The position numbers were made by a program, and so were the translations under genes. DNA of 64,000 nt from NCBI GenBank assembly GCA_965243135.1, contig OZ251539.1, forward strand, positions 3,264,001 through 3,328,000, read 5' to 3'. The notes below the pieces were generated by a model. The model did not search any database. It had not been told where the DNA came from and saw only the letters and a list, made by a program, of their open reading frames with translations. Source of the DNA: Alphaproteobacteria bacterium (lineage in GTDB: Bacteria > Pseudomonadota > Alphaproteobacteria > MPNO01 > UBA830). Position 1 is the stretch's first letter. The number at the start of each line of letters is the position of its first letter. Below are positions 1 to 17,204 of this stretch, one piece after another.

Positions 1-167
1 ACCTCAGCTATCCGGCGGCGAACAACCTCGTCGCGCGCCTGGTTTCGATCGGCATTCTGGAGCGGTTCGGCGACCGCAGACGCAACCGGGCGTTCCTTTA
101 TCGCGATTACATCCGCGTCTTCGCGGACGACCCGGAACCCGCGCCTAGCGATGCGCAAACGGCATGA
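1..167 (+). CDS. 3' end of a probable Fic-family protein (C-terminal HTH), truncated by the window edge
   Basis: Frame +3 reads LSYPAANNLVARLVSIGILERFGDRRRNRAFLYRDYIRVF...*, resembling the C-terminus of Fic/DOC-HTH proteins. Not in the ORF track. Confidence 0.6.
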   Translation, partial: LSYPAANNLVARLVSIGILERFGDRRRNRAFLYRDYIRVFADDPEPAPSDAQTA

Positions 168-260
168 GGCACGTCCTCAAGCCCTACCTATCGCGACAGC
201 GGCTCGCCTTGGCGTCGAAATTATCCCTCTATGGTATTATTGAACTGGGAGACGATAGAG

Positions 261-1313
261 ATGATCCGCTTCAAGACCGGCGACATTCTCGCCGAAGATG
301 TGGAAGCCTTGGTCAATGCGGTCAATTGCGTCGGCGTCATGGGGCGTGGCGTCGCGCTTCAGTTCAAGAAAGCGTTTCCTGAAAATTTCAAGTCCTATTC
401 CGCCGCCTGCAAGCGCAAGGAAGTAAAACCGGGCAGGATGTTCGTGTTCGAAACGGGTGCGCTTGCACCCCGCTACATCGTCAACTTCCCCACCAAAAGG
501 CACTGGCGCACCAACAGTCGGATGGAGGATGTGGAAGCGGGACTGGATGCGCTGGTCGCCGAGATCGAAGCGCGCAACATTCGCTCCATCGCCATACCGC
601 CCCTTGCCTGCGGCTCGGGCGGTCTCGCCTGGGACGATGTGCGCCCGCGCATCCAAGCGGCGCTGTCTGGCTTGGTCGATCTTCGGGTCACTGTCTTCGA
701 ACCCGATGCCGCGCCCGTAGCAAAGGATAGGGCGCGCATGCGAAAGCCGCCGGAGATGACTCCGGGCCGTGCGGCGCTTGTGGGCCTGCTGCGCCGCTAC
801 CTCGACGCCATGCTCGACCCTTTCGTAACTCTGCTGGAGGCGCACAAGCTGATGTATTTCCTGCAAGAGGCGGGCGAACCGCTGCGGCTCCGCTATGCCA
901 AAGCGCCCCATGGGCCCTATGCCGACAACCTGCGGCGCGTTCTGAACGAGATCGAAGGACACATCGTTTCGAGCGACGCTGACGGCGGCGGCGATCCTGA
1001 AATGCCGTTGGAACTTGTTCCCGGCGCTATCGAAGACGCGGAGGCAGTGCTCAAACGCGAGAGCGAAACACAGACACGGTTCGAGCGGGTTACCGAACTG
1101 ATTTATGGCTTCGAGTCGTCTTTCGGCTTGGAACTCCTCGCAACCGTTCATTGGGTGATGACACGCGAGATCGCCCGGCCGACAAGCGAGGTGGTCGCCC
1201 GCACCCATAACTGGCATAGAAGCAAAATGCGCTTCACCCCTCGCCAGATCGCCCTCGCATCGACGCGACTACGGGAGAAGGGCTGGGTCGCTGCTGCGCC
1301 GCCCGTAACCTGA
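261..1313 (+). CDS. darG: DarG-like macrodomain ADP-ribosyl hydrolase with C-terminal extension
   Basis: Motifs GDIL, NAVNCVGVMGRGVALQFK, NFPTKRHWR, SIAIPPLACGSGGL; C-terminal HKLMYFLQ..YAKAPHGPYA and GLELLATVHW. Start taken at ATG 261. Confidence 0.85.
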   Translation: MIRFKTGDILAEDVEALVNAVNCVGVMGRGVALQFKKAFPENFKSYSAACKRKEVKPGRMFVFETGALAPRYIVNFPTKRHWRTNSRMEDVEAGLDALVAEIEARNIRSIAIPPLACGSGGLAWDDVRPRIQAALSGLVDLRVTVFEPDAAPVAKDRARMRKPPEMTPGRAALVGLLRRYLDAMLDPFVTLLEAHKLMYFLQEAGEPLRLRYAKAPHGPYADNLRRVLNEIEGHIVSSDADGGGDPEMPLELVPGAIEDAEAVLKRESETQTRFERVTELIYGFESSFGLELLATVHWVMTREIARPTSEVVARTHNWHRSKMRFTPRQIALASTRLREKGWVAAAPPVT

Positions 1314-2080
1314 TGACGGCTGATTCGAGCGAAACAGGCTTCGAAATCCTCATCGTCAAATCCTTGATCGACAAGGGCGGCCATGTCGTCAGCGATCCGA
1401 AGGATTGCGGCCGCGCCATCGACGTAGCCAAGCTCTTTGGCTACTCGGACGCGAAGCAGTCCGGGGCCGTCGAGACGTCCGGCATCGGAGCCGACAACTT
1501 GCAACGTATCCGACTCCTCCAACGCCTGCGCGATAAGGTCGACAAACGTGGCGTTGTCGACGTGCTCCGCAAGGGATGTAAGCGCGAACCTGCCTTCGAT
1601 GGAGTTGTTCCAGGGCGCGCCGACCTCCGGCAACGCGAAGGCGGAACCCCTGTTTGCCGCGAACGTCTTCAGCGTCACGCGGCAGCTCCGCCATTCGAGA
1701 GACGAAACCCGGCTCGCGCTTGACCTGGCACCGTTCGTCAACGGTCTGTCCATAGCCGCCTTCGAACTCAAGAACGGCCTGACCAAGCAAAAAATCGAAA
1801 ATGCCGTCGAACAATACCGGCGCGACTGCGACCCGAAGGAACCGTTGTTTCGCTTCGGTCATTGCGTCGTCCATTTCGCGGTGGACAATCAAGAGAGAAG
1901 GATGTGCACCCATCTGCGAGGCAAAGACTCGTGGTTTCTGCCGTTCAATATTGATTGAGATAGCGGCGCAGGAAACACGCCGAACCCGCATTGCCTTGAG
2001 CCGACTACTTGTAGAAGAAGGTTCTGCCAAAAAAAGCCTGACTGACATCCTTGAGAACTACGCCCAGATCGTCTCGGAGG
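1313..2080 (+). pseudogene. hsdR: Type I restriction enzyme R subunit, N-terminal fragment, frameshifted and truncated
   Basis: HsdR_N-like blocks are spread over three frames: GVVDVLRKG; FSVTRQL..FVNGL..FELKN..AVEQY..HFAVD..WFLPFN; SLTDILENYAQIV. No helicase domain. Confidence 0.8.
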
Positions 2081-2097
2081 CGGGTGCGCCTTTCCAA

Positions 2098-2541
2098 CTA
2101 GTTCGAAAGTGCAGCCGCCTGACCGGGTGTTTCTTCCAAATTTTCACAGATCAGAACAACGGGATCTCCAACATTCACATAACCCCTTTCGTCATCCTCT
2201 AAATTCATATCCGATCTCATCAATATTTCATACTCCGCGATCCATTTTTTCGGCATAAGCGCATCATAAAGCGTTCCCGATCTTCCAATATTCACTCGCC
2301 TTTTCTTCAACGTAGATGCTACGCAAAGATTTTCCTGAACATGAGTCACTTTGAGTCTTGTCTTAGAACGTTCTATGGAACCCAGAACCTGATTTGTCTC
2401 AGGGTCCGTAATATCCCTGTGCTTGTCATCCACGACATCAAAAATCATTCCCAAACGAACGCCCTGCTTGGAACCAATATTGATTGCCGCCTCGCGAACG
2501 TTAAGGATTTTGGCGATTCTTCCACGAATTGGATCAGTCAT
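2098..2541 (-). CDS. Hypothetical protein, FlgT C-terminal-like beta domain
   Basis: IAKIL..AAINIGSKQGVRLGMIFDV motif; AT-richer than the backbone. Confidence 0.55.
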   Translation of the reverse strand: MTDPIRGRIAKILNVREAAINIGSKQGVRLGMIFDVVDDKHRDITDPETNQVLGSIERSKTRLKVTHVQENLCVASTLKKRRVNIGRSGTLYDALMPKKWIAEYEILMRSDMNLEDDERGYVNVGDPVVLICENLEETPGQAAALSN

Positions 2542-3003
2542 TTCTATCTCCTCGCAGCTGCATCTGGCGAATTTCCTCGCGATACTTCATCACTTCTTCG
2601 GGCACGATGTCGGCCCAATCTTCCAACGCATCGTCCGGTGTCCGTATTTCCCTGATAATTATTTCTCGAAGCGCCAACATTTTTGCGTCTTCTTTCTCAG
2701 GTTCGGAACTTGCTACCATATGTGCTATTCCGCTCAAACCCTCGTAAAGAGAAACAAGACGTCGAAACGCGGATCTTGCATGCGGTCTGATTGGCTCTCT
2801 TACCACATCTCTCGCCACCTATCTTCCTAAAAGATAAGAACCTGTTAAACCAACGCCAGAAATAAATATTTGGAACAAAATATTTTCCAATTCCGTCAAA
2901 TCTCTATTAGCCGATACCAAGAGAAAAATAACCGCGACTCCTACCGAAATCCCGATTAAAAATTTGCCCGAATTTCCCTATTTCTATAAAGAAAAAGAGC
3001 CAT
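2534..3003 (-). pseudogene. Two-TM hypothetical protein disrupted by an in-frame TAG at 2819-2821
   Basis: The frame continues upstream of ORF 2534..2818 through a TAG as GKFLIGISVGVAVIFLLVSANRDLTELENILFQIFISGVGLTGSYLLGR*, with two hydrophobic stretches. The 5' end is approximate. Confidence 0.5.
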
Positions 3004-3256
3004 ATAATAACTATGCCGTTCATTGGTCTTGTTGGCAAGGTCATTCGGTGCGCTTCGAAAGCTTATGATCAGCCTATCAACGCCATGGAGGGCAGTATCG
3101 GGGTGGACTGGCCAGCGAGTCAAGGTGCCCCGCCGCCGGCGCGAAAATCTTTCCTGTCCGGTCAAGCATCGACGAACGCCGACGGTGACGACTTCCGGAG
3201 GGTCGTTCGCCTGTCCTTGCACCGTCGGCCCCACGAACTGGCGCGGGCCGGCGGCG

Positions 3257-4837
3257 TCATTCGTCCGCCGTCGGCTCGCGGCGTCCCGCGAGCTTGTTAC
3301 CTGTCTCGAAGTACCGTCCCGTCACGGCGAACTCCGCTTCCTCCGCATTTTCCTGCGTCCAGGCGCTCAAAGGATAGCCGTGCCACGGCGTCCTCAGGTC
3401 GAGTTCGGGCAAGCCCAGCGCTGTCCATTTCTCCCGCGCCGCCCGCATGAAGTCCTCGCGCGGCAACGAGACGGGCAGGTAGGGATGCTCGCGCACCGCG
3501 TTGATCAGGATCGCCGACGCCCCCCGCGCGTCCGGGTACGCGGAATCCGAAGGAGCGACCGAAGGATCGAGACGCGCCACCTTGCCGCGAATGATCTCCA
3601 TATCGCGATGGGGCTGCGTACTGTAGCTCAGCGCCCACAGCACCGCTTCGAGGGAATCGGGATCGACGTCCGAATCGACAGCGATGAAGATCTTGCCAAG
3701 CGACGCGTCGAATGCAGCAGCCGCGCGAAGCGCTTGCCAGGGCTGCCCGGGTTCCGGCCGGTCGAGCTGGATCACGAACAGCATGTTGCAGCTCGCCATT
3801 TCGTGACATGCGACCCTGACGACGGACGGGTTGTTGCAGGCGTCTCTCAGATGCCTCAGATAGATCGCATCGAACGCAGCCTTGCGCATCACCGTGCTTT
3901 CGCTGGGCGGAAATTCGCTGATGATGCCCTGGTAGACGGGATCGGCGCGGTGAGTGACGGCCGTCACCTCGAAGATCTTCTCCATCTTGCGCGGTCCCAG
4001 ATAACCGCTCGCCTCGCCGAACGGCGCCTCGGGCTCCAGCGTATCGGTGCGAATGACGCCTTCCATCACGATTTCGGCTTCGGCCGGCACCATGCAATCG
4101 AACGTCTCCGCCGGGACGACCGCGATCGGCTCGCCGTTGAGCGCGCCGGCGACGCCGTATTCTTCGACGCCGTAGGGGACCTTGCTCGCGGCCGCCAGAA
4201 GCAGCGCCGGCGGGCCGCCCAGGAATACCGCCGCTTCAAGATGCCGGCCCGCCCGGCGCGCCTTCTCCCACTGAATGGCAAGATGCTGCGTGGACACGTC
4301 GGTGGCGCAGCCCATGCGGTCGGGCGCCTTGATCATGCCGCGATAGATGCCGAGATTGTACGTACCGTCCTCCGGATCCCGCGTAATCCAGACGCCCGCA
4401 GTGAGAAACGGCGCCGGATCGAAGCCCGGCGTCGAAACCAGATGAGGAAACCGGTCGATCCCGTCGCCGAAGGCCGCGCCGGCGTGGACGAAGTCCTTCA
4501 CCGGAGCGCTGGACGCTCGCTCGGGCGGCAAGTGGCCGCTCTGCACGCTCGCCCATCGGTCGCCGATCCCGTCGGGCTTCACGCCGAGCGCAGCGGCGTA
4601 TATCGCGCGCGAAGCGCCAAGCGACCCGATTGCTACGGATGCATCGAATTCCCGTCCGCGCGAGTCGGTGACGTTCGTGAACCAGAACGCCTTGCGCCGT
4701 TCCTCGGGCAGGCCGCGAAACTGCAGCCGGACGAGCGGAACGAGTTCGGTGTCCTTGCTGACGCGTTCCCGAACCACATGCAGAAGATCGCGCGCCTGCA
4801 GCTCTTCCAGATACGCCCGCAGATTACGGTACGGCAT
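3257..4837 (-). CDS. UbiD-family (prFMN-dependent) decarboxylase
   Basis: NLRAYLEEL, TRDPEDGTYNLGIYR, VPAEAEIVMEG, EAPFGE, IFIAVDSDVD..VLWAL. Confidence 0.9.
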   Translation of the reverse strand: MPYRNLRAYLEELQARDLLHVVRERVSKDTELVPLVRLQFRGLPEERRKAFWFTNVTDSRGREFDASVAIGSLGASRAIYAAALGVKPDGIGDRWASVQSGHLPPERASSAPVKDFVHAGAAFGDGIDRFPHLVSTPGFDPAPFLTAGVWITRDPEDGTYNLGIYRGMIKAPDRMGCATDVSTQHLAIQWEKARRAGRHLEAAVFLGGPPALLLAAASKVPYGVEEYGVAGALNGEPIAVVPAETFDCMVPAEAEIVMEGVIRTDTLEPEAPFGEASGYLGPRKMEKIFEVTAVTHRADPVYQGIISEFPPSESTVMRKAAFDAIYLRHLRDACNNPSVVRVACHEMASCNMLFVIQLDRPEPGQPWQALRAAAAFDASLGKIFIAVDSDVDPDSLEAVLWALSYSTQPHRDMEIIRGKVARLDPSVAPSDSAYPDARGASAILINAVREHPYLPVSLPREDFMRAAREKWTALGLPELDLRTPWHGYPLSAWTQENAEEAEFAVTGRYFETGNKLAGRREPTADE

Positions 4838-4974
4838 TCGCCCGGTGCTCCATTGTTAAGCTCGGGGGCATCGCGGCCCCGCTTCACGCCCGAAGCCGCG
4901 GCCGGTGCGCGTCGCCCTCGAACGCCCTGCGCCGCCGTTCGTCGTCGAGACCGGGCGTGGCGTCGACGCGGCGC

Positions 4975-5333
4975 TTGAGTTCGGGATCCATTTTCCTCGG
5001 CTCGACGCATTGCGGCAGTTGGCAGACGGGGACGAAACGAAAGGTCGCAGACCCTGCGAATCGTGTCGTTGCCGATCTGCGCCCAATGACAGGCCGTTTG
5101 CTCCGCGCCGAGATGATGGCCCATGCCGACCGCTCGAGGAGAGAACAACGTCAGGCCGCGTTCGCGCATGAACTTGAGTTGCTCGAGCTTTTCGCGCATC
5201 TCGCCGTCCGACGCCCGGAAGGCGGCGGCGGACGGCCCGAACCCGGGGTTGAACTCCGCATCGGCGAGCCGCTCCCTGCGGCATCAACGCAGCGGGTTCC
5301 GCGGTGCAGTGCCCGTGGCAATCGACGATCATG
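4975..5333 (-). pseudogene. LigJ-like amidohydrolase (4-oxalomesaconate hydratase type), N-terminal remnant
   Basis: MIVDCHGHCTAEPAAL in one frame; QLKFMRERG..LFSPRAVGMGHHLG..WAQIGNDTIRRVCDL in another. Confidence 0.7.
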
Positions 5334-6011
5334 GGGAAACCGCTCCTTGTCTCTCGCGTACCCTGCACTATAGCTAATCGTCGGCATCGCGCCCCGGAAA
5401 GCCGCCCGCCGACGCCGGTTCGCCGACGGCTAAAGGCGCCGCAGCACGCCATCGATGCTGTCTCGTGCGTCGCCGAACGGCATCCGGGCATTCAGGCTGG
5501 GAAGCGCTTTATCGTGCGATAGCATACAGGAAACCGATTCTGGAACCTTACGATACTTCCTGACATAATAAATTTTCGAAGTGTGTAGCAGGTTCTTCAG
5601 AGGGAAACATAACCAACGAAAGCTCGGCCATAAAGCCGAACGTTAGACGTCTGTCATGACGGTCGTGCCTCCTGTCGAGAGAGTCCTTTGCATTTAGCAC
5701 GACCACTACGAGTTAGCGGGAATTTCTGACAATCACAGGTGTTCGACTATAACTAACTGTAACTTCAAGAGAATCTATATCTGGGAGGTATCTATACAAG
5801 GATCGAATCGCCATATATGTCATCTTTAGTATCTGAATACGCTGAATATGACCGTCATACGGCCCATCGAGCGCGACTTAAATCCTGGAATCTCACGAGG
5901 AGCGCGCTATCCTCTGTCACAGGGAAACGAGGCGACTGGCGCTCGGATTCCAAGCCGAAACGCCGGGAGCCATCCCGAAAACAACACGTTTCCCAGGGTC
6001 GGGGTTCCAAC

Positions 6012-6213
6012 CCATAAGCGTCAACTTGTTTGGATACTTCATGTTTCGGGGGCCTCCAATGGTCGAAATTCGCGATGACACGGCAGTTCAGACCCGGATT
6101 TTGGAGACACTGGCCTCACTCACCCGCCCTGATCCGCGTTCTGCCTCACGCTCCTCGGCTTCAGTGGACCAGCGCGAGCAATGCCAAGCCGGGAAACAAG
6201 TTGACGCTTATGG
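6012..6213. mobile_element. MITE or internally deleted IS with perfect 20-bp terminal inverted repeats (IS4 family, IS186/IS231-like ends)
   Basis: CCATAAGCGTCAACTTGTTT (6012-6031) is the exact reverse complement of AAACAAGTTGACGCTTATGG (6194-6213). No transposase and no clear target duplication. Confidence 0.75.
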
Positions 6214-6238
6214 TCGGGAGGGGGGGGGGTGACAGCGG

Positions 6239-6826
6239 TCATCCCTCCGCTGGAGGCTCGGGTTCGAGCACGAATCCCCCGATCGAGAACCGGCCGGCCC
6301 CCCAGTCGTCGGGGTCGCAGCGCACCGGCTCGACCTCGTGCTCGGTCTCGGGCGGGAACGCGACGAAGGCGTTGTGCGCCGGCCGGATCCGGACGGGGCC
6401 GGCGCCGGGCGGATGGAGCACCAGGTCGCCTCCCGCGAAGGCGCACGGACGGCGATGCAGGTAGTAGATGTACGCGATGCGGCGGTTGTCGCACCAACTC
6501 GGCGTGGTCTCTCCGACGTCGGAATGCCGGACATGGAAGTCCCCGTCGTGATGGCACGCCCAAGCGCTATAGAGGCCGGGCGCGGCGGACACGGCCACCC
6601 CCAGCTCCCGCGCCGTCCGCGGAAGCGCCGCGTGGACGCGAGGGAACCACCACTCCCTCTCCCGCGCGCTCAGCTCGGCGTCGAAGGCCGACCGGGTCAG
6701 GCGGTCGATGGTCCCGTCGCCGCTCACCCCTATCGTCCAATCGCCGGAGTACGCATTATCGAACAACGCCACGGCATCGGCGGCGGGCAGAAAGTCGGGA
6801 ATCAGCACATGCGATCTAGGCTTCAT
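6239..6826 (-). CDS. 2OG-Fe(II) oxygenase, prolyl-hydroxylase-like, copy A
   Basis: HxD (HSD), YIYYL..FAGGDLVL, distal His in HEVEPV, RFS 2OG-binding motif; GGAGG RBS. Confidence 0.9.
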   Translation of the reverse strand: MKPRSHVLIPDFLPAADAVALFDNAYSGDWTIGVSGDGTIDRLTRSAFDAELSAREREWWFPRVHAALPRTARELGVAVSAAPGLYSAWACHHDGDFHVRHSDVGETTPSWCDNRRIAYIYYLHRRPCAFAGGDLVLHPPGAGPVRIRPAHNAFVAFPPETEHEVEPVRCDPDDWGAGRFSIGGFVLEPEPPAEG

Positions 6827-6913
6827 CCAGCCTCCGTGCCGTCACTTTCCGGTCGACTGTCCCCCGGACCGTATCGGCGCCGTCGTCCAACCGGGAACGG
6901 CGGGCGATTTCGC

Positions 6914-7501
6914 TCATCCTTCCGCGGAAGGCTCGGGTTCGAGCACGAATCCCACGATCGAGAACCGGCCGGCCCCCCAGTCGTCGGGGTCGCAACGCAC
7001 CGGCTCGACCTCGTGTTCGGTTTCGGGCGGGAACGCGACGAAGGCGTTGTGCGCCGGCCGGATCCGGACGGGGTCGGCGCCGGGAGGATGGAGCACCAGG
7101 TCGCCTCCCGTGAAGGCGCGCGGCCGGCGATGCAGGTAGTAGACATACGCGATGCGGCGGTTGTCCCAGAAAGCCATCGCGGTCTCTCCGGCGTCGCGAT
7201 GCCGGACGTGGAGATCTCCGCTGTGATGGCACGCCCAGGCGGTAAAGAAGTCGGGCGCGGCGGATACGTCCACCCCCAGCTCCCGCGCTGTCCGCGGAAG
7301 CGCCGCGAGGACGCGAGGGAGCCACCATTCCCTCTCGCGCGCGCTCAGTTCGGCGTTGAAGACCGACCGGGACAGGCGGTCGATGATGCCGTTGCCGCTC
7401 GTCCCTATCGTCCAATCGCCGGAGTACGCATTGTCGAACAACGTTGCGGCATCGGCGGCGGGCAGGAAGTCGGGAATCAGCACATGCGATCTAGGCTTCA
7501 T
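6914..7501 (-). CDS. 2OG-Fe(II) oxygenase, prolyl-hydroxylase-like, copy B
   Basis: HRD, HEVEPV and RFS motifs; 30 substitutions out of 195 aa versus copy A by manual count, with no gaps. Confidence 0.9.
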   Translation of the reverse strand: MKPRSHVLIPDFLPAADAATLFDNAYSGDWTIGTSGNGIIDRLSRSVFNAELSAREREWWLPRVLAALPRTARELGVDVSAAPDFFTAWACHHSGDLHVRHRDAGETAMAFWDNRRIAYVYYLHRRPRAFTGGDLVLHPPGADPVRIRPAHNAFVAFPPETEHEVEPVRCDPDDWGAGRFSIVGFVLEPEPSAEG

Positions 7502-7864
7502 CCAACCTCCGCGCCGTCGTGGTCGAGTTCGGGCCCAACATTCCCAACGGCGCCGCCACCCGCCGCGCTGTCACCGGCGCCCCGGCGGCGGCGAGAACCT
7601 TTCGCCAATCGATGCGGTAGCCGACCCCCTCGAGCCGTTTCAGGGAGTGCCGGCCCGCCTGCATGAGATCCGCCACGCTCTCGGGACGGATCTGGGCGGG
7701 CGCGCCGTCGACGGCGACCACGCACGCGCCGGGCTCCCTGCCCGGCGCGTCGCCGCTGCCCGCGAGCCGCCACCGCACCGGCGAGTCCTCGACCTGCATC
7801 CGGATCAGCACCGTCCGGGGCGGGCCTGCCGGGGCGCCCCGCGGCACCCCGGAAGACCGGGCAT
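7491..7864 (-). other. Uncertain small ORF(s) between the precursor and the oxygenases
   Basis: AAGGAGG precedes ATG 7864, giving a 19-aa ORF (MPGLPGCRGAPRQARPGRC). A second frame is open from ATG 7799 to 7491 (102 aa) and overlaps the oxygenase B start. May be one frameshifted gene. Confidence 0.3.
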
Positions 7865-7938
7865 CGGGAACCTCCTTCCGCGACGTGCGGCGAGCCACGT
7901 CGACCAAGCAGGGAGCAGCCCCGCCCTCGCCGGCTCCG

Positions 7939-8319
7939 TCACTGGCCGTAGCGGTACCCCGTAAACCCCGGAAGATTGGGCGGCGAGAAGCACCCACGGT
8001 AGGCGCGAGGGGCCGGCTGCGCCGAAGCGGTCTTGCCGCCGGCGACCATGTCGAGCACCTCGTCCCCCATGCCGGTGTTGAAGTCGGGGGGAAGGACGAA
8101 ATGGAAGACCTCGTCCGTGTCCTCCACGACGCGCACATCCGTATCAGGCGCCACGTCGATGTTGTTCTCGACGAGGGCCGCGACCGGGTCCGAGTCGAAG
8201 TTCGCGCGAAAGTCCAGATCCTCGCGGTACGCATCCGAGATGGACACGAGCTGGCGCGCGCACTGTCTGAATCCTTCGGCTTCCATCGGTACGTGGAGCA
8301 TCGTCGTCAAGTTGATCAT
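7939..8319 (-). CDS. NHLP-leader (proteusin-type) RiPP precursor peptide, 126 aa
   Basis: Leader DLDFRANFDSDPVAAL..VRVVEDTDEVFHFVLPP..DEVLDMVAGG with a double-glycine site; predicted core KTASAQPAPRAYRGCFSPPNLPGFTGYRYGQ; purine-rich RBS before ATG 8319. Confidence 0.85.
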   Translation of the reverse strand: MINLTTMLHVPMEAEGFRQCARQLVSISDAYREDLDFRANFDSDPVAALVENNIDVAPDTDVRVVEDTDEVFHFVLPPDFNTGMGDEVLDMVAGGKTASAQPAPRAYRGCFSPPNLPGFTGYRYGQ

Positions 8320-8794
8320 GTCTTCGTTCCTTCTTCCCAAGACCCATGTGACCACGCCCAACGGCTCCTCACGAGGATACTGCCATTAAGCGCCGGAAGC
8401 GCCATTACAGCGCCCGGTGCGCCCCGTCGTCAACCCCGAGTTGACCCTAATCTCGAGCTTGGGCCATGCCTGTCCGGGCGTCGCTGTGCGTGTCATGAGG
8501 GGTCCGTTCGCGCTCTTCCCCCCGGCGCGCGCCCCACCCCGACCTCCCCCCTGCCATTGCCTGACAGGAGGGAGGTCGGGAGGGGGGTCACGCGGCCCCG
8601 CAACGCCGCGCGCTCCTCGGTCCCCGCCGGTAGGAGAAATGTGGGCTGGTGTCGTAACATGAATCATGCCGACCGGGTTCGACGCGGCGAAGCGTTCGGC
8701 CACCCTCGATTCCGGAGGATTGGACATGGCCCGGGCCGGGGAGGCGTTCCCGGGCGCTCTTGAAAGACGCCCGACGCGGGATACCCGTCCCTGA

Positions 8795-8947
8795 ACGCCC
8801 ATACCGGAACCGACGCATACGGGCGTACTGATCGCCGGCCCCAAGGCCGCGGGAAAGTCCCGGCTCGCGCTCGCGGAGGCCCTGGAGTCTTTCGGCGGGG
8901 CGACGATCATAAATTCGGACAGTATGCAGGTCTATCGCGACTCTCGG
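8795..8947 (+). pseudogene. miaA: tRNA dimethylallyltransferase 5' fragment
   Basis: VLIAGPKAAGKSRLAL..GGATIINSDSMQVYRD matches the MiaA N-terminus. No ATG start, and similarity ends abruptly. Confidence 0.75.
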
Positions 8948-9174
8948 AGCGGCACCGTGGTGATTTCCGCGCGCGGAATGGCGACTCCCGACCGCATGGC
9001 GCCCATGCCTCCCGCGCGTTGCGCCGCCAACCGGTCGATCCCGAGTTTCCATGTGGCGATCGCCTGGAGCAGCGTGGATTTCCCGGCGTTGTTCGGTCCT
9101 GCGAGAACGACCGTATCCGCCAGCTCCTCCTCGCGAAAGCGTTTGAAGTTCTTGATGGAAACGCGCCGGATCAT
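8932..9174 (-). pseudogene. ABC/SMC-like (AAA_15/21) ATPase, N-terminal fragment
   Basis: MIRRVSIKNFKRF..VLAGPNNAGKST; only 80 aa, no Walker B. Confidence 0.75.
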
Positions 9175-9640
9175 CTTTGCCTCGGCGCCGCGGTCGCCAT
9201 GGCGATCGCCTTTCCGCCCCCTCGCCCCGGCAGGCGGCCGAAAGCGCGTTGACGAGCTTCAAGAAGCGGGGACCGCGCTCGCGTTCCGCCCACGCGGGCA
9301 GCGCGGCGTCGACTTCGAAGGAACATGAGGGCGCGCCGACGCTCGACGTTCGGGAACCGGGAATGCCGGGCGGCGCGGAGAGCCAACCGACCCCTTGCCG
9401 TTTCCGGAATGCTGCGCATGGCATTCTGCTCTGTTATCGCGACATTATGCCATTGTCGTCCGCGGATGACCATCCACTGCGCGCCGCTCTTCGGACCCGC
9501 GGAGTCGACCGCGCTTGCGCGACGCGACGCGGCCTTTTACGGGCCTTCCGAGGACAATCGGCGAAGCCGCGCCCGCCTCTCCGGCGCGGCTTCACAAAAA
9601 TGTTATTGGCCTGCGCGTCGCCGGAGCCTATATTTGCGGC

Positions 9641-10366
9641 ATGAAAAAACTCGTTCCCCTCGCTGTCGCTTCGCTAACGCTCGCTGCGGCGACGGCGAGC
9701 GCCGACAACGATCCCGTCGTCGTCGAGCTTTTCACCTCGCAGAGTTGCTATTCGTGCCCGCCGGCCGAGAAATTCCTCGGCGAACTCGCCGGAAGAAAGG
9801 ATGTCCTCGCGCTCGAGTTTCATGTCGACTACTGGAACGATCTCGTATTCGGCGAAGCCGGACGATGGAAGGACGTTTTCTCCAAGCGCGCCTTTACGGA
9901 ACGGCAGATCGGTTACAATCAGCGAATCCGCGAACAGTCGAACGTGTACACGCCGCAAATGGTCGTGGGCGGGCGGCTGGAAGCCGTCGGATCGCATCGC
10001 GCCAACGTCCTGTCCGCGATCGAGGCCTCCGCAACCGACCGAAACGACCGCGTTCGCATCGAGATCGCCCTCGACCCCGAAACGAACGTGACCCTCGCCG
10101 GCGATTCCGTCGAACGCGGAACCGTATGGCTCGTTCGGTTCGTCGAACGGCATCGAACCGACGTGCGGGGCGGCGAGAACAAGGGCAAGTCTCTGGTCAA
10201 CCACCATGTCGTGACGGAGGTCCGGCGAATCGGCGAATGGGCGGGACAGGGCATGTCTGTGACGGTGACGGATTTCTCCCTGGCGGCGGGAGAGGGATGC
10301 GCCGTGCTCGTGCAGGACGATCGCCAAGGCCCGATTCTGGGCGCCGGCGCCTGTCCGGCGCTCTGA
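9641..10366 (+). CDS. DUF1223 secreted thioredoxin-like protein
   Basis: Signal peptide; VVELFTSQSCYSCPPA, FHVDYWN, YTPQMVV. Confidence 0.9.
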   Translation: MKKLVPLAVASLTLAAATASADNDPVVVELFTSQSCYSCPPAEKFLGELAGRKDVLALEFHVDYWNDLVFGEAGRWKDVFSKRAFTERQIGYNQRIREQSNVYTPQMVVGGRLEAVGSHRANVLSAIEASATDRNDRVRIEIALDPETNVTLAGDSVERGTVWLVRFVERHRTDVRGGENKGKSLVNHHVVTEVRRIGEWAGQGMSVTVTDFSLAAGEGCAVLVQDDRQGPILGAGACPAL

Positions 10367-10454
10367 TCGGGAAGAAGGCGGCCGGCAGACCGACCGAATT
10401 GCCGAACCGCCGGCGGCCGCGTAAGCTCCCTCTTGGACGCGAAGCGGAGGCCGC

Positions 10455-11327
10455 ATGTTCGAATTCGGCGACGTCACGGTCGCTCCGATCGTCGAAATGG
10501 AACTGCCGCTGCTCGAAGCCGCGGCGTTCTTCCCCGATTGGAACGAGGACGCGATCGAACCGCACCGCGAGTGGATGGTTCCGCGCCACTACGACCCGGC
10601 AAGCGGCAAGGTCGTGATCAATATCCAGTCCTTCCTGGTCCGCACGCCTCGCCATACGATCCTGGTCGACACCTGCGTCGGCAACCGCAAGCGGCGCAAC
10701 CGGGAGTTTTTCGACGACGCGGCGTTCCCCTGGATGGACCGTTTCCTCGCGGCCGGCGCGACGCCCGAGGAAATCGATTTCGTCCTGTGCACCCACATGC
10801 ACGTCGATCACGTCGGCTGGAACACCAGGCTCGAGAACGGGCGCTGGGTTCCGACGTTTCCCAACGCGAAATACATCTTCGCGCGATCCGAACTCGACTT
10901 CTGGCTGCGGCAGTCGGAACGGAACCTGATGACGCGCACCGGCGATTACGTGGCCGACAGCGTGATCCCGATACTCGACGCAAGGCGCGAACTGCTGGTC
11001 GAAACGGATCACCAGATCGACGACGGGCTTACGCTGGAACCGTTGCCCGGCCACACGCCGGGAATGGTGGGACTTCGCATCTCTTCCGGTGGACGCGAAG
11101 CGGTCCTCTGCGGCGATCTCATGCATCATATGATCCAGTGCCATATTCCCGGCTGGAGCACCATCGCCTGCGCCGACCGCGAAGCGGCCCGGGCCACCCG
11201 GGAAGCGTTCCTCGACCGCTACGCCGAAACGGACGTCACCGTCGTCCCGTCCCACTTCCCGACCCCGACGGCGGGCGCGATCGTTCCTTGCGGGGGAGCC
11301 TTCGCTTTCCGCTACCTGGGCGAATGA
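10455..11327 (+). CDS. MBL-fold metallo-hydrolase
   Basis: THMHVDHVG, PGHTPG, GDLMH, SHF. Confidence 0.9.
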   Translation: MFEFGDVTVAPIVEMELPLLEAAAFFPDWNEDAIEPHREWMVPRHYDPASGKVVINIQSFLVRTPRHTILVDTCVGNRKRRNREFFDDAAFPWMDRFLAAGATPEEIDFVLCTHMHVDHVGWNTRLENGRWVPTFPNAKYIFARSELDFWLRQSERNLMTRTGDYVADSVIPILDARRELLVETDHQIDDGLTLEPLPGHTPGMVGLRISSGGREAVLCGDLMHHMIQCHIPGWSTIACADREAARATREAFLDRYAETDVTVVPSHFPTPTAGAIVPCGGAFAFRYLGE

Positions 11328-11451
11328 ACGCGGACGCCGGCCCGTCCGCCGGAACGAGGGCAGCGGGCGCGACGGCCGCTTCGCAAACGGCGCGGCGGTC
11401 CGCTCCGAAACGATCCCCGGAGCGGCTTCGAAAAGACGTTCCGCGCCGAAT

Positions 11452-13116
11452 TCAGAACAGTCCCTCGATCCTTCCCCCCGCGCCGAGCCTGATGGCGGCG
11501 GCGGCGGGAACCCGCGGCAGTCCGGGCATCGTCATGATGTCGCCGCAGATCGCCACCACGAATTCCGCGCCGGCCGAAAGCCGGACCTCGCGCACCGGAA
11601 CGACGTGATCGACCGGCGCGCCCTTGAGTTCCGGATCGACCGAGAAGCTGTACTGGGTCTTGGCCATGCACACCGGCAGGTTCCGGTAACCCTCCTCCTC
11701 CCAGCGCCGAAGCTGGTCGAGAACCCGCCTGTCCGCAGTCGCTTCGGCGCCGCGATAAATCTCGCGGACGACCGTGCCGATCTTGTCGAACAGGCCCATG
11801 TCGTCCGGATAGAGCGTCCTGAAATCCGCGTCGCCGCGCGCCACGACCGCGTCCACCTCTCGCGCCAGCGCCTCGATGCCCGCGGAACCGTCCGCCCAGT
11901 GGGTGCATTCCACCACCGGGACTTCGCCGCCGATCCCGGACGCCACGACCGCGACCTCGGCGTCGCTGTCGTCCGCGAAACGGTTGACGGCCACGACCGG
12001 AGGCACTCCGAAACGCGCGACGTTCTCGACGTGCCGGCGAAGATTGGGGAGGCCCTTCGCGACCGCCCCCGCGTTCTCCGTCCCCAGATCCCGGCGCGCG
12101 ACCCCGCCGTGCATCTTGAGGGCGCGGACGGTGGCCACGATCACGGCGGCGTCGGGCCGAAGGTTCGCCTTGCGGCACTTGATGTCGAAGAACTTCTCGG
12201 CGCCGAGATCCGCCCCGAAGCCGGCCTCGGTCACCACGTAGTCCGCCAGGCGAAGCGCCGCTTCCGTCGCGATCACCGAATTGCACCCGTGCGCAATGTT
12301 GGCGAACGGGCCGCCGTGGACGAAGGCGGGGTTGTTCTCCAGCGTCTGCACCAGATTGGGCATCAACGCGTCTTTCAACAGAACGGCCATCGCGCCGTCG
12401 GCCTGCAGGCGGCCGGCGGTCACCGGGGCGCGGTCGCGAGTCTGGCCGACGACGACGTTCGCGAGGCGGCGCTCCAGATCCGGGAGCGACAGCGCGAGGC
12501 AAAAGATCGCCATCACTTCGGAAGCGACGGTGATGTCGAAGCCGCTTTCGCGGGCGAAGCCGTTGGCGACGCCGCCCAACCCGACGGCGACCTCGCGCAG
12601 CGCGCGATCGTTGATGTCCACGACCCGCCGCCAGGAAATCCGGCGCGAATCGAGTTCCGCCGCGTTGTCCCAATAGACATGGTTGTCGACCATCGCGGCG
12701 AGGAGATTATGCGCCGCGCCGATGGCGTGCATATCGCCGGTGAAATGGAGATTGATGTCCTCCATCGGCACCACTTGGGCGTACCCGCCGCCGGCCGCGC
12801 CGCCCTTCATGCCGAAGCACGGACCGAGGGAAGGCTCGCGGATGCAAACCGCCGCCTTCCTGCCGATGCGGTTCAACCCGTCGACCAGGCCCACCGTGGT
12901 CGTCGTCTTGCCTTCGCCGGCGGGGGTGGGCGTAATCGCCGTCACGAGAACCAGCTTGCCCCTTGGACGGTCGCGAAGTCCGTCGAGAAAGCCATGGTCG
13001 AGTTTGGCCTTGTCGACTCCATAAGCGCGAAGCGCATCGGCCGGTATTCCCATGCCGGCGCCGATCTCGCCGATCGGCAGGGTCTTCGCGGCGCGGGCGA
13101 TCTCGATATCGGTCAT
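11452..13116 (-). CDS. fhs: Formate-tetrahydrofolate ligase
   Basis: [49 protein letters not shown]. Confidence 0.97.
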
Positions 13117-13263
13117 GAGCCTCTCCGACAGCGGCGGGAGAACGTAATCGCCGCCGAAGCAAATCACAAACGGCGGCGCGTTTGCGAGCAGGAAAACCGA
13201 GCGTATGACACGCGGACGGGCAGGCTATAGGTTTACCCGTCGTTTCAAAGGTCGGCGGTCGCC

Positions 13264-15411
13264 ATGCGGACCCGAATCCTTCTTCTGATTTTGGTTCTCG
13301 CCGGCGCGGCGGCGGGGCCGCCGCTCCATGCCCAGAGCGCCGCCGCGCCGCCGGCCCAGGAGGAAGCCGCCGGGCCGAGCCAGGCCGAGTTGACGGACCT
13401 CGTGGCGGACATCGAGGATCCGGAAGCCCGCGCGAAGTTGCTGACCCGCCTCAAGATCCTCCTTGCGGCGACCGACGGGACCGCAAAACCGGAGGCGGCC
13501 GGGGAAAGCGGAATCGCCAAAGCGCTGTCGGAGCGAATCGACCGCCTCAGCGAGGAACTGGTCGCCGGCGCCGCGCTGTTGCTCGATCCTCCGCGCGTCG
13601 CCGCATGGATTCGCGATCAGGCGGAACGCAAGGAATCGAGGAACCTCTGGCTGAACGTTCTGTGGATGTCGGCGGTCGTTCTGGCTGCCGGGCTGATCGC
13701 CGAACTCGGCGCGCGCCGCCTCCTGTCCCGCACGCGCGAAAGATTGCTGCCGCGGCACGTCGCAGCCCGGACGTCGCTCGACCTCGTTTCCATCGCCTCC
13801 TTCGCCGTCGCCGCTTACGCCGCGCTTTTCCTGCTCGGAGCCGGGGAGGCGACCCGCGCGGTCGCGGCGCCCTTGGTGGCCGCCAGCGTCGTCGCCCGAG
13901 CCGCCGCGGTTCTCGCCACGACGTTTTTCGCGCCGGGCGCGCCGCACATGCGCGCAACGAAACTCGACGACGAAACCGCGAACTATCTGGCGCTTTGGAT
14001 CCGCCGCTTCGCCAATGTCGGCGCCTACGGCTACTTTCTGGTCGAGTCGACGAGGCTGCTGGGGCTTCCGCACGGCGGTCAGTTCCTGCTCGGAAGGGCG
14101 GTCGGCCTGCTTCTGGCGTCGCTGGCGATCATCTTCGTCCTGCAGAACCGCCGGAGCGTCGCAGCGCGGATTCGCGGAGACGGCGGGAGCCTCGGCGCCC
14201 TTCGCCGCCGTTTCGCCGCCGTCTGGCACCTGTTCGCGGCGGGGTATTTCGGGGCCGTCTACGTCGTCTGGGCGCTGGAGACCGGGTTCGAATTCGTCTT
14301 CCGCGCCACCGTGATCAGCGCCGCGATCGTCGCGGCGGCCAAGGTCCTGACGTCGGGCTCCCGCATCGCCCTCGACAGGGGTTTCGGATTGCGGCCGGAA
14401 CTCGTCCGGCGGCATCCGGGGCTCGTCGAACGGGCGAACCGGTATTTTTCGGCGCTGCATCACGCGGTTTCCTGGACGATCGCGGCCGCGGCGGCCCTCG
14501 CGATCCTGCGGGCCTGGGGCGTCGACTCCTTCGGCTGGATCGACAGCGAGACGGCGCGCCGGGCGATCGGCAGCCTGGTCACGAGCGCGATCGTGGTCGT
14601 CGTCGCGGTGGCGCTGTGGGAAGTCGCGAGCTCCGCCATCGAGCGCTATCTGGAGTCGGCCGCGAACGGCGACCCCGGGCGCCGCGCGCGCACCCTCCTG
14701 CCCTTGCTTCGCCGGGTCCTGATGATCGTCACCGCCACCGTGATCGGACTCGTGCTTCTTTCGGAAATCGGCGTGGACATCGGGCCGCTGCTGGCCGGAG
14801 CGGGCGTCGTCGGCCTCGCGGTCGGGTTCGGCGCGCAGACGCTGGTGAAGGACGTGATCACCGGCGTCTTCATCCTCGCGGAGAACCAGTTCGGGGTCGA
14901 CGACGTCGTGCGCGTCGGCGACAGGTCGGGGGTGGTCGAGGACATCTCCATCCGCACCATCCGTCTCCGCGACCTGAGGGGCAACGTTCACATCATTCCG
15001 TTCAGTTCGGTTTCGACCGTGGAGAACATGACCAGCGAGTTCTCCCGCTACCTGTTCGACATCGGCGTCGCCTACCGCGAAGACGTGGACGAAGTGATCG
15101 AGGTCCTCGAAGCGCTCGGCGAGGAGATGCGGGCCGATGCCGTCTACGGCGGCTGGATCCACGAGCCCTTGGAGATCATGGGGCTGAACGAGCTCGGCGA
15201 TTCCGCGGTGGTCGTCCGCTCGCGCTTCACCACCGATCCCGGCAGGCAGTGGCAGGTCGGCCGCGAGTTCAATCGCCGGATCAAGCGCCGCTTCGACGAG
15301 CTCGGCATCGAAATCCCGTTCCCGCACCGGACGGTTTATTTCGGGGAAGGGAAGGAAGGCGGCGCGCCGCCGGCCTTCGTGCGCGAAGAGCGGGAAGCGG
15401 GCGCGGAATAG
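13264..15411 (+). CDS. Large MscS-family mechanosensitive channel (YbiO-like)
   Basis: Signal peptide, many TM helices, LLAGAGVVGLAVGFGAQTLVKD, GIEIPFP. Confidence 0.92.
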   Translation: MRTRILLLILVLAGAAAGPPLHAQSAAAPPAQEEAAGPSQAELTDLVADIEDPEARAKLLTRLKILLAATDGTAKPEAAGESGIAKALSERIDRLSEELVAGAALLLDPPRVAAWIRDQAERKESRNLWLNVLWMSAVVLAAGLIAELGARRLLSRTRERLLPRHVAARTSLDLVSIASFAVAAYAALFLLGAGEATRAVAAPLVAASVVARAAAVLATTFFAPGAPHMRATKLDDETANYLALWIRRFANVGAYGYFLVESTRLLGLPHGGQFLLGRAVGLLLASLAIIFVLQNRRSVAARIRGDGGSLGALRRRFAAVWHLFAAGYFGAVYVVWALETGFEFVFRATVISAAIVAAAKVLTSGSRIALDRGFGLRPELVRRHPGLVERANRYFSALHHAVSWTIAAAAALAILRAWGVDSFGWIDSETARRAIGSLVTSAIVVVVAVALWEVASSAIERYLESAANGDPGRRARTLLPLLRRVLMIVTATVIGLVLLSEIGVDIGPLLAGAGVVGLAVGFGAQTLVKDVITGVFILAENQFGVDDVVRVGDRSGVVEDISIRTIRLRDLRGNVHIIPFSSVSTVENMTSEFSRYLFDIGVAYREDVDEVIEVLEALGEEMRADAVYGGWIHEPLEIMGLNELGDSAVVVRSRFTTDPGRQWQVGREFNRRIKRRFDELGIEIPFPHRTVYFGEGKEGGAPPAFVREEREAGAE

Positions 15412-15584
15412 CGTCGGCGCGGAACCGCGCATCGCGCGAGGACCAGGGGGTCATGGCCGAAATCGAGACCCGAACGACCTTGCCTGCCCCTTACGAGCGC
15501 AAAGCGCTCCGAACTCGCTGCAACCGACACGGCCTGCAGCGTTCGGACCGCGCCGACGAATCTCGTTCCGGCGGGCACCTTCTC

Positions 15585-15960
15585 GGATAAGCATCGCGCA
15601 CTGCATCCCAGTCGCCAAAGTACCAAGCCTCTAGCTCTTCGATCACGAAACGCTATCTGCCACGAGTTATCGGCAACCTGGGTCCGAGTACGCAGATTCG
15701 ACGCCGCCGCCTCAAGCTGTCTTTTTAAATCGTGGCAATCATCATTGTCGCGATCGACCATCACGACTATACGCCAATCAGACGGAAGCCAACTCGCGGA
15801 TAACCTTTCACCCAGATTCCGCAACAATCTAGATTTGCCGCGAGATGCATGGACCTTGAACGTGCAACCACTCGGAAGAAGACGTGGAAGCAGGCCTCGC
15901 AAAAAACTCCATCGAGGATTCCTCGACAAAAAATTTCAAGTCCCGTGCCTTATCAATTAA
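15585..15960 (-). pseudogene. DUF4276-like partner of the upstream ATPase, frameshifted and truncated
   Basis: FVEESSME, RGLLPRLLP..GKSRLL..VMVDRDNDDC and IEELEAWYFGDW lie in shifted frames. Confidence 0.7.
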
Positions 15961-15962
15961 GT

Positions 15963-17204
15963 TTATTCTCCAAAATACGCTGGGTCGCCATTCCGAAAAA
16001 GGGGATCTCCCAATCCAAAATATCCCTCCATCCACAAATCTCCAAGAATGGCGCCATTTTTGATTAATGCCTCTATGTTGCTCAAATCCGCCACGGGCTG
16101 CGTACGCGTATAGCCCGCTTCGTCACGCCATAGAACTCGAACCTCCTCCGCCCGAAGCGCATCCACGAATAACGGCGAATGCGTGGTGATAAGAAGCTGC
16201 GTATGCTCGCAGGCGGCGCGGCATTCCTCGGCCAATTCAAAAAGGAGACGAGGATGCAGAAAATTTTCAGGTTCTTCAATACCTATAAACGGCGGCGGAT
16301 CCAGATCGTACAACAGCACGAACAAAGTAAGCATCTTTAATGTGCCATCAGAGGCAAACCGTGCTAAAACAGGATTTCCAAATGGAGCATCCTTGATTTT
16401 CAACGACAATCGGCCGTCCGACATCGTCTCGGTCAATACCCTTTCTATGCGCGGCACGCGTCTTCGGAGCGTTTCGATTATCTTCTCGAGTCGCGTCGAG
16501 TGCCGCTCGCTCAGGCATTGTATGACATTGGCGAGGTTGTCTCCGGTGGCGCTAAGCCGCTCTTGCGGATCCGTTCCCTGTTGCCCTCGGACGTTGTCCG
16601 CAGAAAGACGTGAGACATGGCATCCCATGACGAAGTCACGCAGCGCCGCTACCCGCGGATGTTCCTGCAACTGGCCAAGTACATTGGCAGCCAGAAGATC
16701 GGGCGACTTAAGGAGAATTGTCCGACGTTCGTCTTCGACGCGTGGCTCGTCGCCGCCGGTCGATTCGCCTTCGCCGCCGCTGAAACGGAGGAAACGAAAT
16801 GGGCCGCCCCGACGGCCAAGCCTCCACGCCAACCATTCATGCGCGACTGTCGGAGAGCCGCCATCCTCGTCGATTTCCAAATGATACGTGATCAATCTTT
16901 CCCCAGGCCGCTCGCGGTATTTCATTTCGATGACGATCGGTCCTTGGGAGTCGCGGGTCCTTAACTCTTTGGCGCGGCCGCGGCGATTCCATGCGCTGTG
17001 CAGGCCGAATTGAAAGCACTCCGCGAGGAACGCAAAGACGTCGAACACCGTGGATTTACCGCTGCCGTTCGGGCCGATAAGCACCGTCATCGGGGTTAGA
17101 TCGCGAAATTCAACTTCCCGAAGCGCTCGGAAATTTCGGACCTTCAGACACTCCACTCGAGGAATTTTTTGACACGCCGATTCGCGCATGTCGATTTCTC
17201 CCAA
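15963..17204 (-). CDS. AAA_21-type (ABC-like) ATPase
   Basis: [35 protein letters not shown]. Confidence 0.9.

Follow-up and report, generated by a model that had tools for sequence, protein, structure and literature searches.

A mobile cassette pairing an NHLP-type precursor with prolyl-hydroxylase-like oxygenases in sponge-associated Alphaproteobacteria

Hydroxylases that depend on iron and 2-oxoglutarate (Fe/2OG) are known from pathways to peptides made by the ribosome and modified after translation (RiPPs). PhaI acts on a precursor with a nitrile hydratase-like leader peptide (NHLP) in the making of phaeornamide and, as far as the accessible part of its report goes, hydroxylates ornithine (PMC8784127). 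MppG of Moorena producens is described, in the available portion of the paper, as a Nif11-leader-dependent Fe/2OG hydroxylase that places two hydroxylations on a short core (10.64898/2026.10.04.756588). In sponge microbiomes, the srp proteusins are presented in the accessible sections of two reports as combining an NHLP precursor with a YcaO enzyme and a brominase (10.1101/2023.06.09.544420; PMC12426817). Here we consider a cassette of four co-oriented genes on the minus strand, at positions 6239-8361 of a 64-kb window, the whole stretch of DNA that was analysed (C1:3264001-3328000 of its alphaproteobacterial host genome), which encodes an NHLP-type precursor, an orphan small protein and two small Fe(II)/2OG oxygenases. 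It is probably a mobile satellite proteusin module, made up of the precursor, the orphan and one or two oxygenases of the prolyl hydroxylase domain/prolyl 4-hydroxylase (PHD/P4H) type, whose product would be a secreted hydroxylated peptide of a sort that has not been described before; the hosts are uncultured.

The precursor and its association with the oxygenases

The precursor gene (7939-8319, minus strand) encodes 126 amino acids, an NHLP-type leader of 95 residues that runs to VAGG and a core of 31. An alternative TTG 42 nt upstream would give 140 amino acids; homologue starts support the ATG, all 13 beginning at the same Met with MINLT (MMNLA in one). The leader ends in LDMVAGG, and the core, KTASAQPAPRAYRGCFSPPNLPGFTGYRYGQ, contains five Pro, three Tyr, two Phe, three Arg and one Cys. 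Both the reading frame and this composition had been given in an earlier note, a model's reading of the letters and open reading frames (ORFs) alone, and a recount of the translation bears them out. The comparison with an NHLP hidden Markov model (HMM) proposed there gave a match to TIGR03793 (E 2e-10, model positions 14-77 of 77), although its score of 40.4 bits lies below the curated NCBI cut-off of 50.9; PF02979 (NHase_alpha) matched below threshold (E 0.008). A profile built from a 14-member alignment, the window precursor and 13 homologues, matched about 29 nitrile hydratase alpha chains (E 4e-8 to 1e-4) as well as 8tb1, an NHLP leader of solved structure (E 7.3e-10), and because of these matches the precursor belongs to the NHLP clan, as a divergent subfamily.

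Within this alignment the leader holds 24 invariant positions, among them A-G-G at 93-95, and beyond the Gly-Gly the family splits into at least three unrelated core types. Group A, with the motif C-[FYW]-[ST]-P-P-[ND]-x-P-G-F-[TS]-G-[YW], comprises the window precursor, where the conserved stretch reads C-F-S-P-P-N-L-P-G-F-T-G-Y, those of L001 and L002 (P0005), which are cassette loci in two other Alphaproteobacteria metagenome-assembled genomes (MAGs; G061 and G062, respectively), and P0002, P0003 and P0006. Three prolines are conserved in these cores, one of them in an x-Pro-Gly, and one Cys is invariant. Their net charge differs, so that the cationic character which the earlier note had expected of the product is not a trait of the family. 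Group B cores carry R-x-x-R-[TS]-A-x-x-G-S-[LW]-S-T and those of group C P-[SA]-C-G-C-G-A-x-C-x-D-[SA]-W-T.

When 185,579 species genomes were scanned with the pattern of this alignment, six loci were found in four Alphaproteobacteria MAGs, and at two of the six, L001 (two copies) and L002 (one copy), the oxygenase is present as well; these are the neighbourhoods of NHLP and 2OG oxygenase that the earlier note had suggested looking for in other genomes. The L001 precursor is 93% identical to that of the window and the L002 precursor 61%, and the block as a whole is 96.6% identical over 2337 nt in L001 and 85% identical at the nucleotide level in L002, where homology runs from 13 nt ahead of the precursor start to about 20 nt beyond the oxygenase stop. 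All ORFs are intact, four in the window and in L001 and three in L002. The flanking genes are UbiD and DUF1223 in the window, MiaA, HAD and DegP in L001, and hydantoinase A/B, RidA and a flavodoxin-like reductase in L002. Conservation of the block amid such unrelated neighbours in three genomes ties the precursor genetically to the oxygenases. The tie extends to the core: among cores of known genomic context, a count to which P0002, P0003 and P0006 do not belong, an intact oxygenase stands beside the group-A core at 3/3 loci (window, L001 and L002) and beside other cores at 0/5 (the second copy in L002, L003, L004, L008 and L009).

L008 and L009 are paralogous NHLP loci in the host's own genome, with group-C cores of the form S-C-G-C-G-A-S-C ... 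W-T. Downstream of each precursor lies a frameshifted and deleted oxygenase remnant, at L008 1000-1437 (C1:4209591-4209832) and at L009 1999-2637 (C1:3815247-3815690), the latter with the region of the orphan gene absent.

Of 61 related genomes searched, the host's own and that of L002 (G049 in this set, from another family of the same order) contain the oxygenase, and G026 contains a 33% identical relative; the cassette oxygenase occurred in 0/4 genomes of the same genus and 0/25 of the same family. A scan of JGI metagenomes returned remote oxygenases only (24-43% identity) and no new copy of the cassette, and a convincing NHLP neighbour was found at 0/80 metagenome loci with remote oxygenase relatives. 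Weak NHLP-profile matches (E 6.6e-4) 4.5 kb from an oxygenase, at L104, L108 and L109, represent one repeated locus.

The oxygenases and the orphan protein

The two oxygenases, oxy1 (6914-7501, minus strand) and oxy2 (6239-6826, minus strand), are proteins of 195 amino acids each that match PF13640 with 50.4 and 50.0 bits, above the cut-off of 27, in agreement with the earlier note, which had placed two co-oriented prolyl-hydroxylase-like enzymes after the precursor. They are tandem paralogues with a period of 675 nt, 84.6% identical as proteins, each with a GGAGG 5 nt ahead of its ATG. The HxD...H triad (H101, D103 and H163) and the 2OG-binding R179 are invariant in 60 aligned sequences, both paralogues included. 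An AlphaFold2 (AF2) model of oxy1 (pLDDT 87.6, pTM 0.86) is predicted to have the double-stranded beta-helix of the prolyl-hydroxylase type; the 50 best Foldseek matches to it are led by Pseudomonas putida PPHD, Trichoplax PHD, Dictyostelium PhyA and human PHD2, and the leading matches are protein prolyl-4-hydroxylases with TM scores of 0.61-0.72, identities of 16-22%, E 5e-11 to 1e-8 and a probability of 1.00. A sequence-only search of the PDB gave no significant match to the oxygenase. Family and fold would point to hydroxylation of peptidyl proline.

Relatives are numerous and distant. There were 1236 matches at E<=1e-3 among 1.84 billion representatives, of which one full-length cluster and three fragments exceed 50% identity and the next lie at 30-46%, so the clade is isolated. 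Within it two types can be told apart: type 1 comprises oxy1, its orthologue the single L002 enzyme, and P0016, and type 2 comprises oxy2, the second copy of L001 and the metagenomic P0018. With one enzyme in L002, the pair is a lineage-specific duplication. Of 22 paralogue-specific residues, 13 are concentrated in residues 84-112, a segment about the HxD motif and the loop behind it; this clustering fits an altered substrate site between the paralogues. Ratios of nonsynonymous to synonymous substitution rates (dN/dS) for the oxygenases range from 0.15 to 0.55, the lowest being that of oxy2 between the window and L001.

The earlier note had described a minimal cassette of precursor and two enzymes; those genes are present, but a further conserved ORF between precursor and oxy1 (7491-7811, minus strand; at least 106 amino acids), the orphan, had been missed, and L002 does with a single oxygenase. 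The window and L002 agree at about 90% of positions in the 437-nt 'spacer' in which the orphan lies, and the frame has GC contents by codon position of 0.76/0.63/0.89, the pattern of the flanking genes. Its start is uncertain, at GTG 7811 or ATG 7799, homologues elsewhere beginning about 25 codons upstream; such homologues form six further clusters, 70-92% identical and gene-called in an NCBI MAG as well as in metagenomes. The orphans of the window and L001 differ by three synonymous changes and no nonsynonymous one, and for the window against L002 the dN/dS is 0.40. A 5-nt indel near the 3' end gives rise to two variants of the tail, and because both terminate in a stop that overlaps the oxygenase ATG, translational coupling of orphan and oxygenase is suggested. 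Near 7808-7867 there is also a 19-amino-acid ORF with an ATG and a good Shine-Dalgarno sequence; it was discarded as a gene, since in L001 and L002 the ATG reads ACG.

What the orphan resembles was sought by several routes. PDZ_6 is its sole Pfam match up to E 10 and is sub-threshold, at 16.8 bits (E 0.006) for the window and 13.0 bits (E 0.087) for L002 against a cut-off of 27; no match to PqqD or a RiPP recognition element (RRE) was found in the same search, and an Atlas search returned no usable match. An AF2 model from a seven-row alignment reached a pLDDT of 38.8, too poor for a fold search. That the orphan might have split off from the N-terminus of a longer oxygenase was considered and discarded: its HMM, run on 181 proteins that included 54 longer oxygenase relatives with N-terminal extensions, matched its own seven family members alone (next E 0.089), and since those extensions gave no match, the orphan is not a split-off oxygenase domain. 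It is possibly an adaptor or chaperone for the oxygenase. A complex prediction of oxygenase, orphan and precursor, with the precursor scored, gave 0.00 against a mark of 0.32 and carries no weight either way.

Mobility, habitat and machinery elsewhere in the genome

The surroundings of the cassette carry what look like traces of a transfer. A foreign miaA fragment (8813-9034, plus strand; residues 6-84 of 322) is 65% identical to the MiaA of L001 in a tblastn search with that protein; the host's full-length miaA (C1:3050048-3050929), about 220 kb away, is 49% identical to L001 MiaA. The counterparts of the L001 housekeeping flanks likewise map 220 kb away in the host's genome, at only 66-73% identity. 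The fragment thus reads as a scar of the transfer that carried in the cassette. An ORF on the minus strand (8932-9174) overlaps it; its product resembles an AAA/ABC-type ATPase in the N-terminal P-loop part, and it is perhaps either a further fragment or spurious.

Direct copies of a palindromic element stand on either side of the cassette in L001 (9640-9705 and 12085-12150). The window has a C-rich palindromic repeat upstream of the precursor (8516-8647, no strand assigned) and a truncated copy directly after the oxy2 stop (6220-6238, no strand assigned), which sits precisely where homology to L001 ends and marks the downstream edge of the transferred block. The element, of about 65-90 nt and similar in kind to repetitive extragenic palindromes or miniature inverted-repeat transposable elements (MITEs), recurs beside NHLP precursor loci and a locus encoding a C39-peptidase ATP-binding cassette exporter (C39-ABC), with further copies at L003 and L004 and in the host's own genome near C1:116000 and C1:122600; in four sponge runs contigs are 10-20 times as deep over the element as over its neighbours. 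A separate dispersed repeat of 240 nt with a MITE-like look lies just downstream of the cassette (5493-5731), within a stretch of lower GC, and has 17 further copies in the host's genome at 87-97% identity. An Rfam scan of 5400-9500 returned only sub-threshold miRNA models on the palindromic repeat, which were judged spurious, and a tRNA search of window positions 1-16000 found none. A hairpin 3' of the precursor stop, predicted at 3/3 loci, was considered as an attenuator or terminator and rejected, its energy being that of shuffled sequence at 2/3 (z 0.73, -2.36 and 0.59) and a T-run being absent.

From the window to L002 the cassette genes have diverged at synonymous sites (dS) by only 0.16-0.24, and to judge from the sequences the cassette is horizontally mobile and was recently transferred among sponge-associated Alphaproteobacteria. 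The leaders show something similar on a wider scale. Between leader types (window, L001-L004, L008 and L009), drawn from genomes of distant relationship, dS is only 0.13-0.27 and dN/dS 0.9-1.4, and because a low dS goes with a dN/dS near 1, family-wide horizontal exchange, still ongoing, together with diversifying, fast leader evolution is suggested. Precursors also occur in tandem arrays in two further Alphaproteobacteria MAGs, five at L005 9449-11792 and seven at L006 7834-11048, with Ser/Ala/Gly/Thr-rich cores and no oxygenase nearby. Directly upstream of the L002 precursor (L002 9868-9965) is a perfect 9-nt tandem repeat (GGCGCTGAT) of about 11 copies.

The stretch itself is present in sponge metagenome runs of three studies. 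Contigs of four runs from these three studies cover the cassette piecewise, no single piece spanning it. In runs X1, X2 and X5 a contig joint, 6329>7795, skips 1465 nt and inserts 13 other letters between 30-nt sides; it may perhaps derive from a related locus in which the start of the orphan gene abuts the oxygenase 3' end.

As the earlier note had stated, the 64-kb window contains no C39 domain, whether peptidase or exporter. Its further statement that radical SAM, YcaO and LanM enzymes are lacking holds within the window and does not extend to the genome, where an NHLP island (C1:3779000-3817000; L111, L112) carries several tandem precursors, a C39-ABC and a second ABC gene, two YcaO-wHTH fusions, a ThcOx-like dehydrogenase, a radical SAM enzyme, HlyD and an APH-family kinase. 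The host has 20 NHLP matches and two C39-ABC genes in all (with C39 domains at C1:3795828, in the exporter gene C1:3795765-3797963, and at C1:120854), a second C39-ABC locus with precursors lying at C1:114000-124000 (L113); in G061 as in G062, two YcaO genes are found near a C39-ABC. All three genomes encode C39-ABC exporters away from the cassette, which makes it plausible that the peptide is cut and exported in trans, maturation in trans being one of two possibilities given in the note beside that of a fragmentary cluster; the support is weak, because C39 is common and was found in 7/14 control genomes. The closest paralogous leaders, 68% identical, lie in or near the YcaO island, and because they adjoin YcaO, dehydrogenase and radical SAM enzymes, further tailoring in trans, for instance an azoline at the invariant Cys, is conceivable, so that the cassette may not be the sole machinery acting on its precursor.

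A proposed route and its competitors

We regard as established which genes the cassette holds and that they are conserved together, that the catalytic residues are intact, to which class the fold belongs, that the block is mobile and that exporters occur in trans; from these we infer a substrate, a modified residue, an order of steps and a role for the orphan. The folded NHLP leader would serve to dock the precursor onto the oxygenase, with the orphan as a possible go-between. The oxygenase or oxygenases would then hydroxylate one to three of the conserved core prolines, the x-Pro-Gly being the best guess from the known behaviour of PF13640 enzymes. Where two diverged paralogues are present, they might act on different sites, after which a C39-peptidase ABC exporter encoded elsewhere would cut behind the Gly-Gly and export the peptide. 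A bolder version, which we put forward only tentatively and rate below an even chance, is that of a plug-in proteusin module defined by prolyl hydroxylation, in which a PHD/P4H-type enzyme and an orphan adaptor install hydroxyproline(s) at PP-x-x-P-G, the module hops by way of palindromic repeats and relies on the NHLP exporter hub of its host, and duplicated enzymes have sub-functionalised in some hosts. If true, this would be the first bacterial RiPP family with collagen/HIF-type prolyl hydroxylation as its class-defining modification, and it would bring with it a new leader- or core-binding protein family.

Several points weigh against a hydroxylating proteusin module. The PHD-like fold leaves the target residue unfixed, the oxygenase has, for an enzyme, a high dN/dS (0.4-0.55), and that of the precursor between the window and L002 is about 0.9 in leader and core alike. 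The TIGR03793 score falls short of its cut-off, the orphan lacks a recognisable fold or family in Pfam (to E 10), Atlas and AF2 searches, and no exporter or protease adjoins the cassette. The module is dispensable, the oxygenase having decayed at paralogous loci. The sample is small: because the window and L001 cassettes are 96.6% identical they count as about one observation, which leaves L002 and short metagenome fragments as independent evidence. Among the runs listed as holding the stretch, none is RNA.

Some of these points can be turned into other readings. The precursor might be mainly a substrate of the NHLP/YcaO island, its Cys (and Ser/Thr) being converted to azol(in)es with the oxygenase as an accessory, which would make the product an azole proteusin like srp. 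The island offers the enzymes for this, two YcaO proteins, the ThcOx-like dehydrogenase, the radical SAM enzyme and a C39-ABC; two YcaO genes near a C39-ABC recur in all three cassette genomes, the 68% identical leaders in or near the island stand beside Cys/Gly-rich cores, one Cys is invariant in group A, and the pairing of NHLP precursors with YcaO is reported for srp proteusins of sponge symbionts in the accessible text of that study (10.1101/2023.06.09.544420). Yet group-A cores have this single Cys and none of the Cys/Ser/Gly-rich runs of the YcaO-type neighbours, the leader differs from its island paralogues at about one third of positions, and the cassette moves between genomes with no YcaO of its own, so we consider this unlikely, if the strongest of the competitors. 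A little less likely again is some other chemistry of the same enzymes: hydroxylation of Asn/Asp, Phe or Tyr, a desaturation or an oxidative cross-link, for example of the invariant Cys-aromatic pair. RiPP 2OG oxygenases do act on other residues, Trp C-beta for MppG (10.64898/2026.10.04.756588) and ornithine for PhaI (PMC8784127) in the available parts of these reports; the core motif also has invariant Cys, Phe, Gly and aromatic positions, and the oxygenase is only 16-22% identical to prolyl hydroxylases. It is the PF13640 assignment, the protein prolyl hydroxylases that make up all the leading structural neighbours, and the conservation of three core prolines, x-Pro-Gly among them, that speak for proline instead.

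The evidence for mobility also admits a passenger, decaying or selfish, that recombination between repeats has spread and that makes no functional product in this genome. A recent transfer, a repeat-bounded block and a broken miaA scar would fit such a passenger, as would the precursor dN/dS of about 0.9, the oxygenase pseudogenes at two paralogous loci of the same genome and the absence of the cassette from all four same-genus and all 25 same-family genomes examined. Decay is nevertheless improbable in view of ORFs that are intact at all three loci (four, four and three genes), an orphan whose changes between the window and L001 are synonymous only (0/3 nonsynonymous), the oxy2 dN/dS of 0.15, invariant catalytic residues, and strong Shine-Dalgarno sequences and overlapping stop and start codons that have been retained. 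Least probable is an intracellular oxygen-sensing or regulatory pair, in which a small NHase-alpha-like protein would be the hydroxylation target of the PHD-like enzyme, as EF-Tu is of PPHD and HIF of PHD2; the best structural matches are indeed oxygen-sensing protein hydroxylases, and the NHLP leader is a folded, protein-like domain according to the available part of one report (10.64898/2026.10.04.756588), but the precursor bears a full RiPP signature, with its Gly-Gly leader end, hypervariable C-terminal core behind a conserved leader and 20 paralogous matches in the genome, and C39-ABC exporters are present.

Comparison with known systems

A full-text literature search, in which subscription journals lay mostly outside the scope and supplementary genome-mining tables may hold a mention, found no report that connects prolyl-hydroxylase-type enzymes with precursors of NHLP/proteusins or other bacterial RiPPs. 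New here are the use of a small PHD/P4H-type PF13640 oxygenase as sole enzyme and its pairing with an orphan of its own, together with a core motif and an architecture, mobile and bounded by repeats, that have not been described before. The proteusins of sponge symbionts represent a rich and largely cryptic peptide chemistry in which Fe/2OG hydroxylases have so far been accessories in large clusters. As a unit of 2.1 kb the cassette would be easy to express and could give a leader-guided peptidyl-prolyl hydroxylase pair for peptide engineering, and in the orphan there would be a new family of small partner proteins that could be studied beside RREs. The locus would also illustrate how a core-plus-tailoring module moves among genomes and borrows the leader-processing and export hub of its host.

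The PHD-type prolyl 4-hydroxylases (PPHD, 4iw3/4j25; human PHD2; Dictyostelium PhyA, 6t8m) share with the cassette enzymes the HxD...H triad, the 2OG-binding Arg and a length of about 200 amino acids; they differ in an identity of only 16-22% and in having no link to RiPP precursors. Enzymes of this type modify folded cellular proteins (EF-Tu, HIF and Skp1) in oxygen sensing.

Closer in context are the proteusins with Fe(II)/2OG hydroxylases, polytheonamide and the phaeornamide of PhaI, with which the cassette shares an NHLP-family precursor and a Gly-Gly leader end, a 2OG-type hydroxylase for core side chains, its own hydroxylation being predicted, and marine or sponge-associated producers, as these are set out in the accessible portion of the source (PMC8784127). 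In that portion their hydroxylase has an accessory part next to LanM, arginase, GNAT or radical SAM enzymes, and PhaI belongs to the PF08007 type, whereas the cassette has a 195-amino-acid PF13640 enzyme of the PHD/P4H type, sometimes duplicated, as the sole enzyme of the block and with an orphan partner. MppG is likewise a 2OG/Fe hydroxylase paired with a long folded leader, which it requires; it differs, on the available part of its description (10.64898/2026.10.04.756588), in having its own RRE domain, a core cyclised by lanthionine and hydroxylation at Trp C-beta. The cassette in contrast combines an NHLP rather than a Nif11 leader with a separate small protein and a proline-rich core, and no RRE is detectable in it. 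With the srp proteusins, finally, it has in common the sponge habitat, multi-copy and widely exchanged NHLP precursors and YcaO/C39-ABC hubs in the same genomes; the accessible text on srp describes Cys-rich cores (LCCCW) with a brominated Trp end and makes no mention of an oxygenase (10.1101/2023.06.09.544420), whereas the core of the cassette is rich in proline and aromatic residues and has one Cys.

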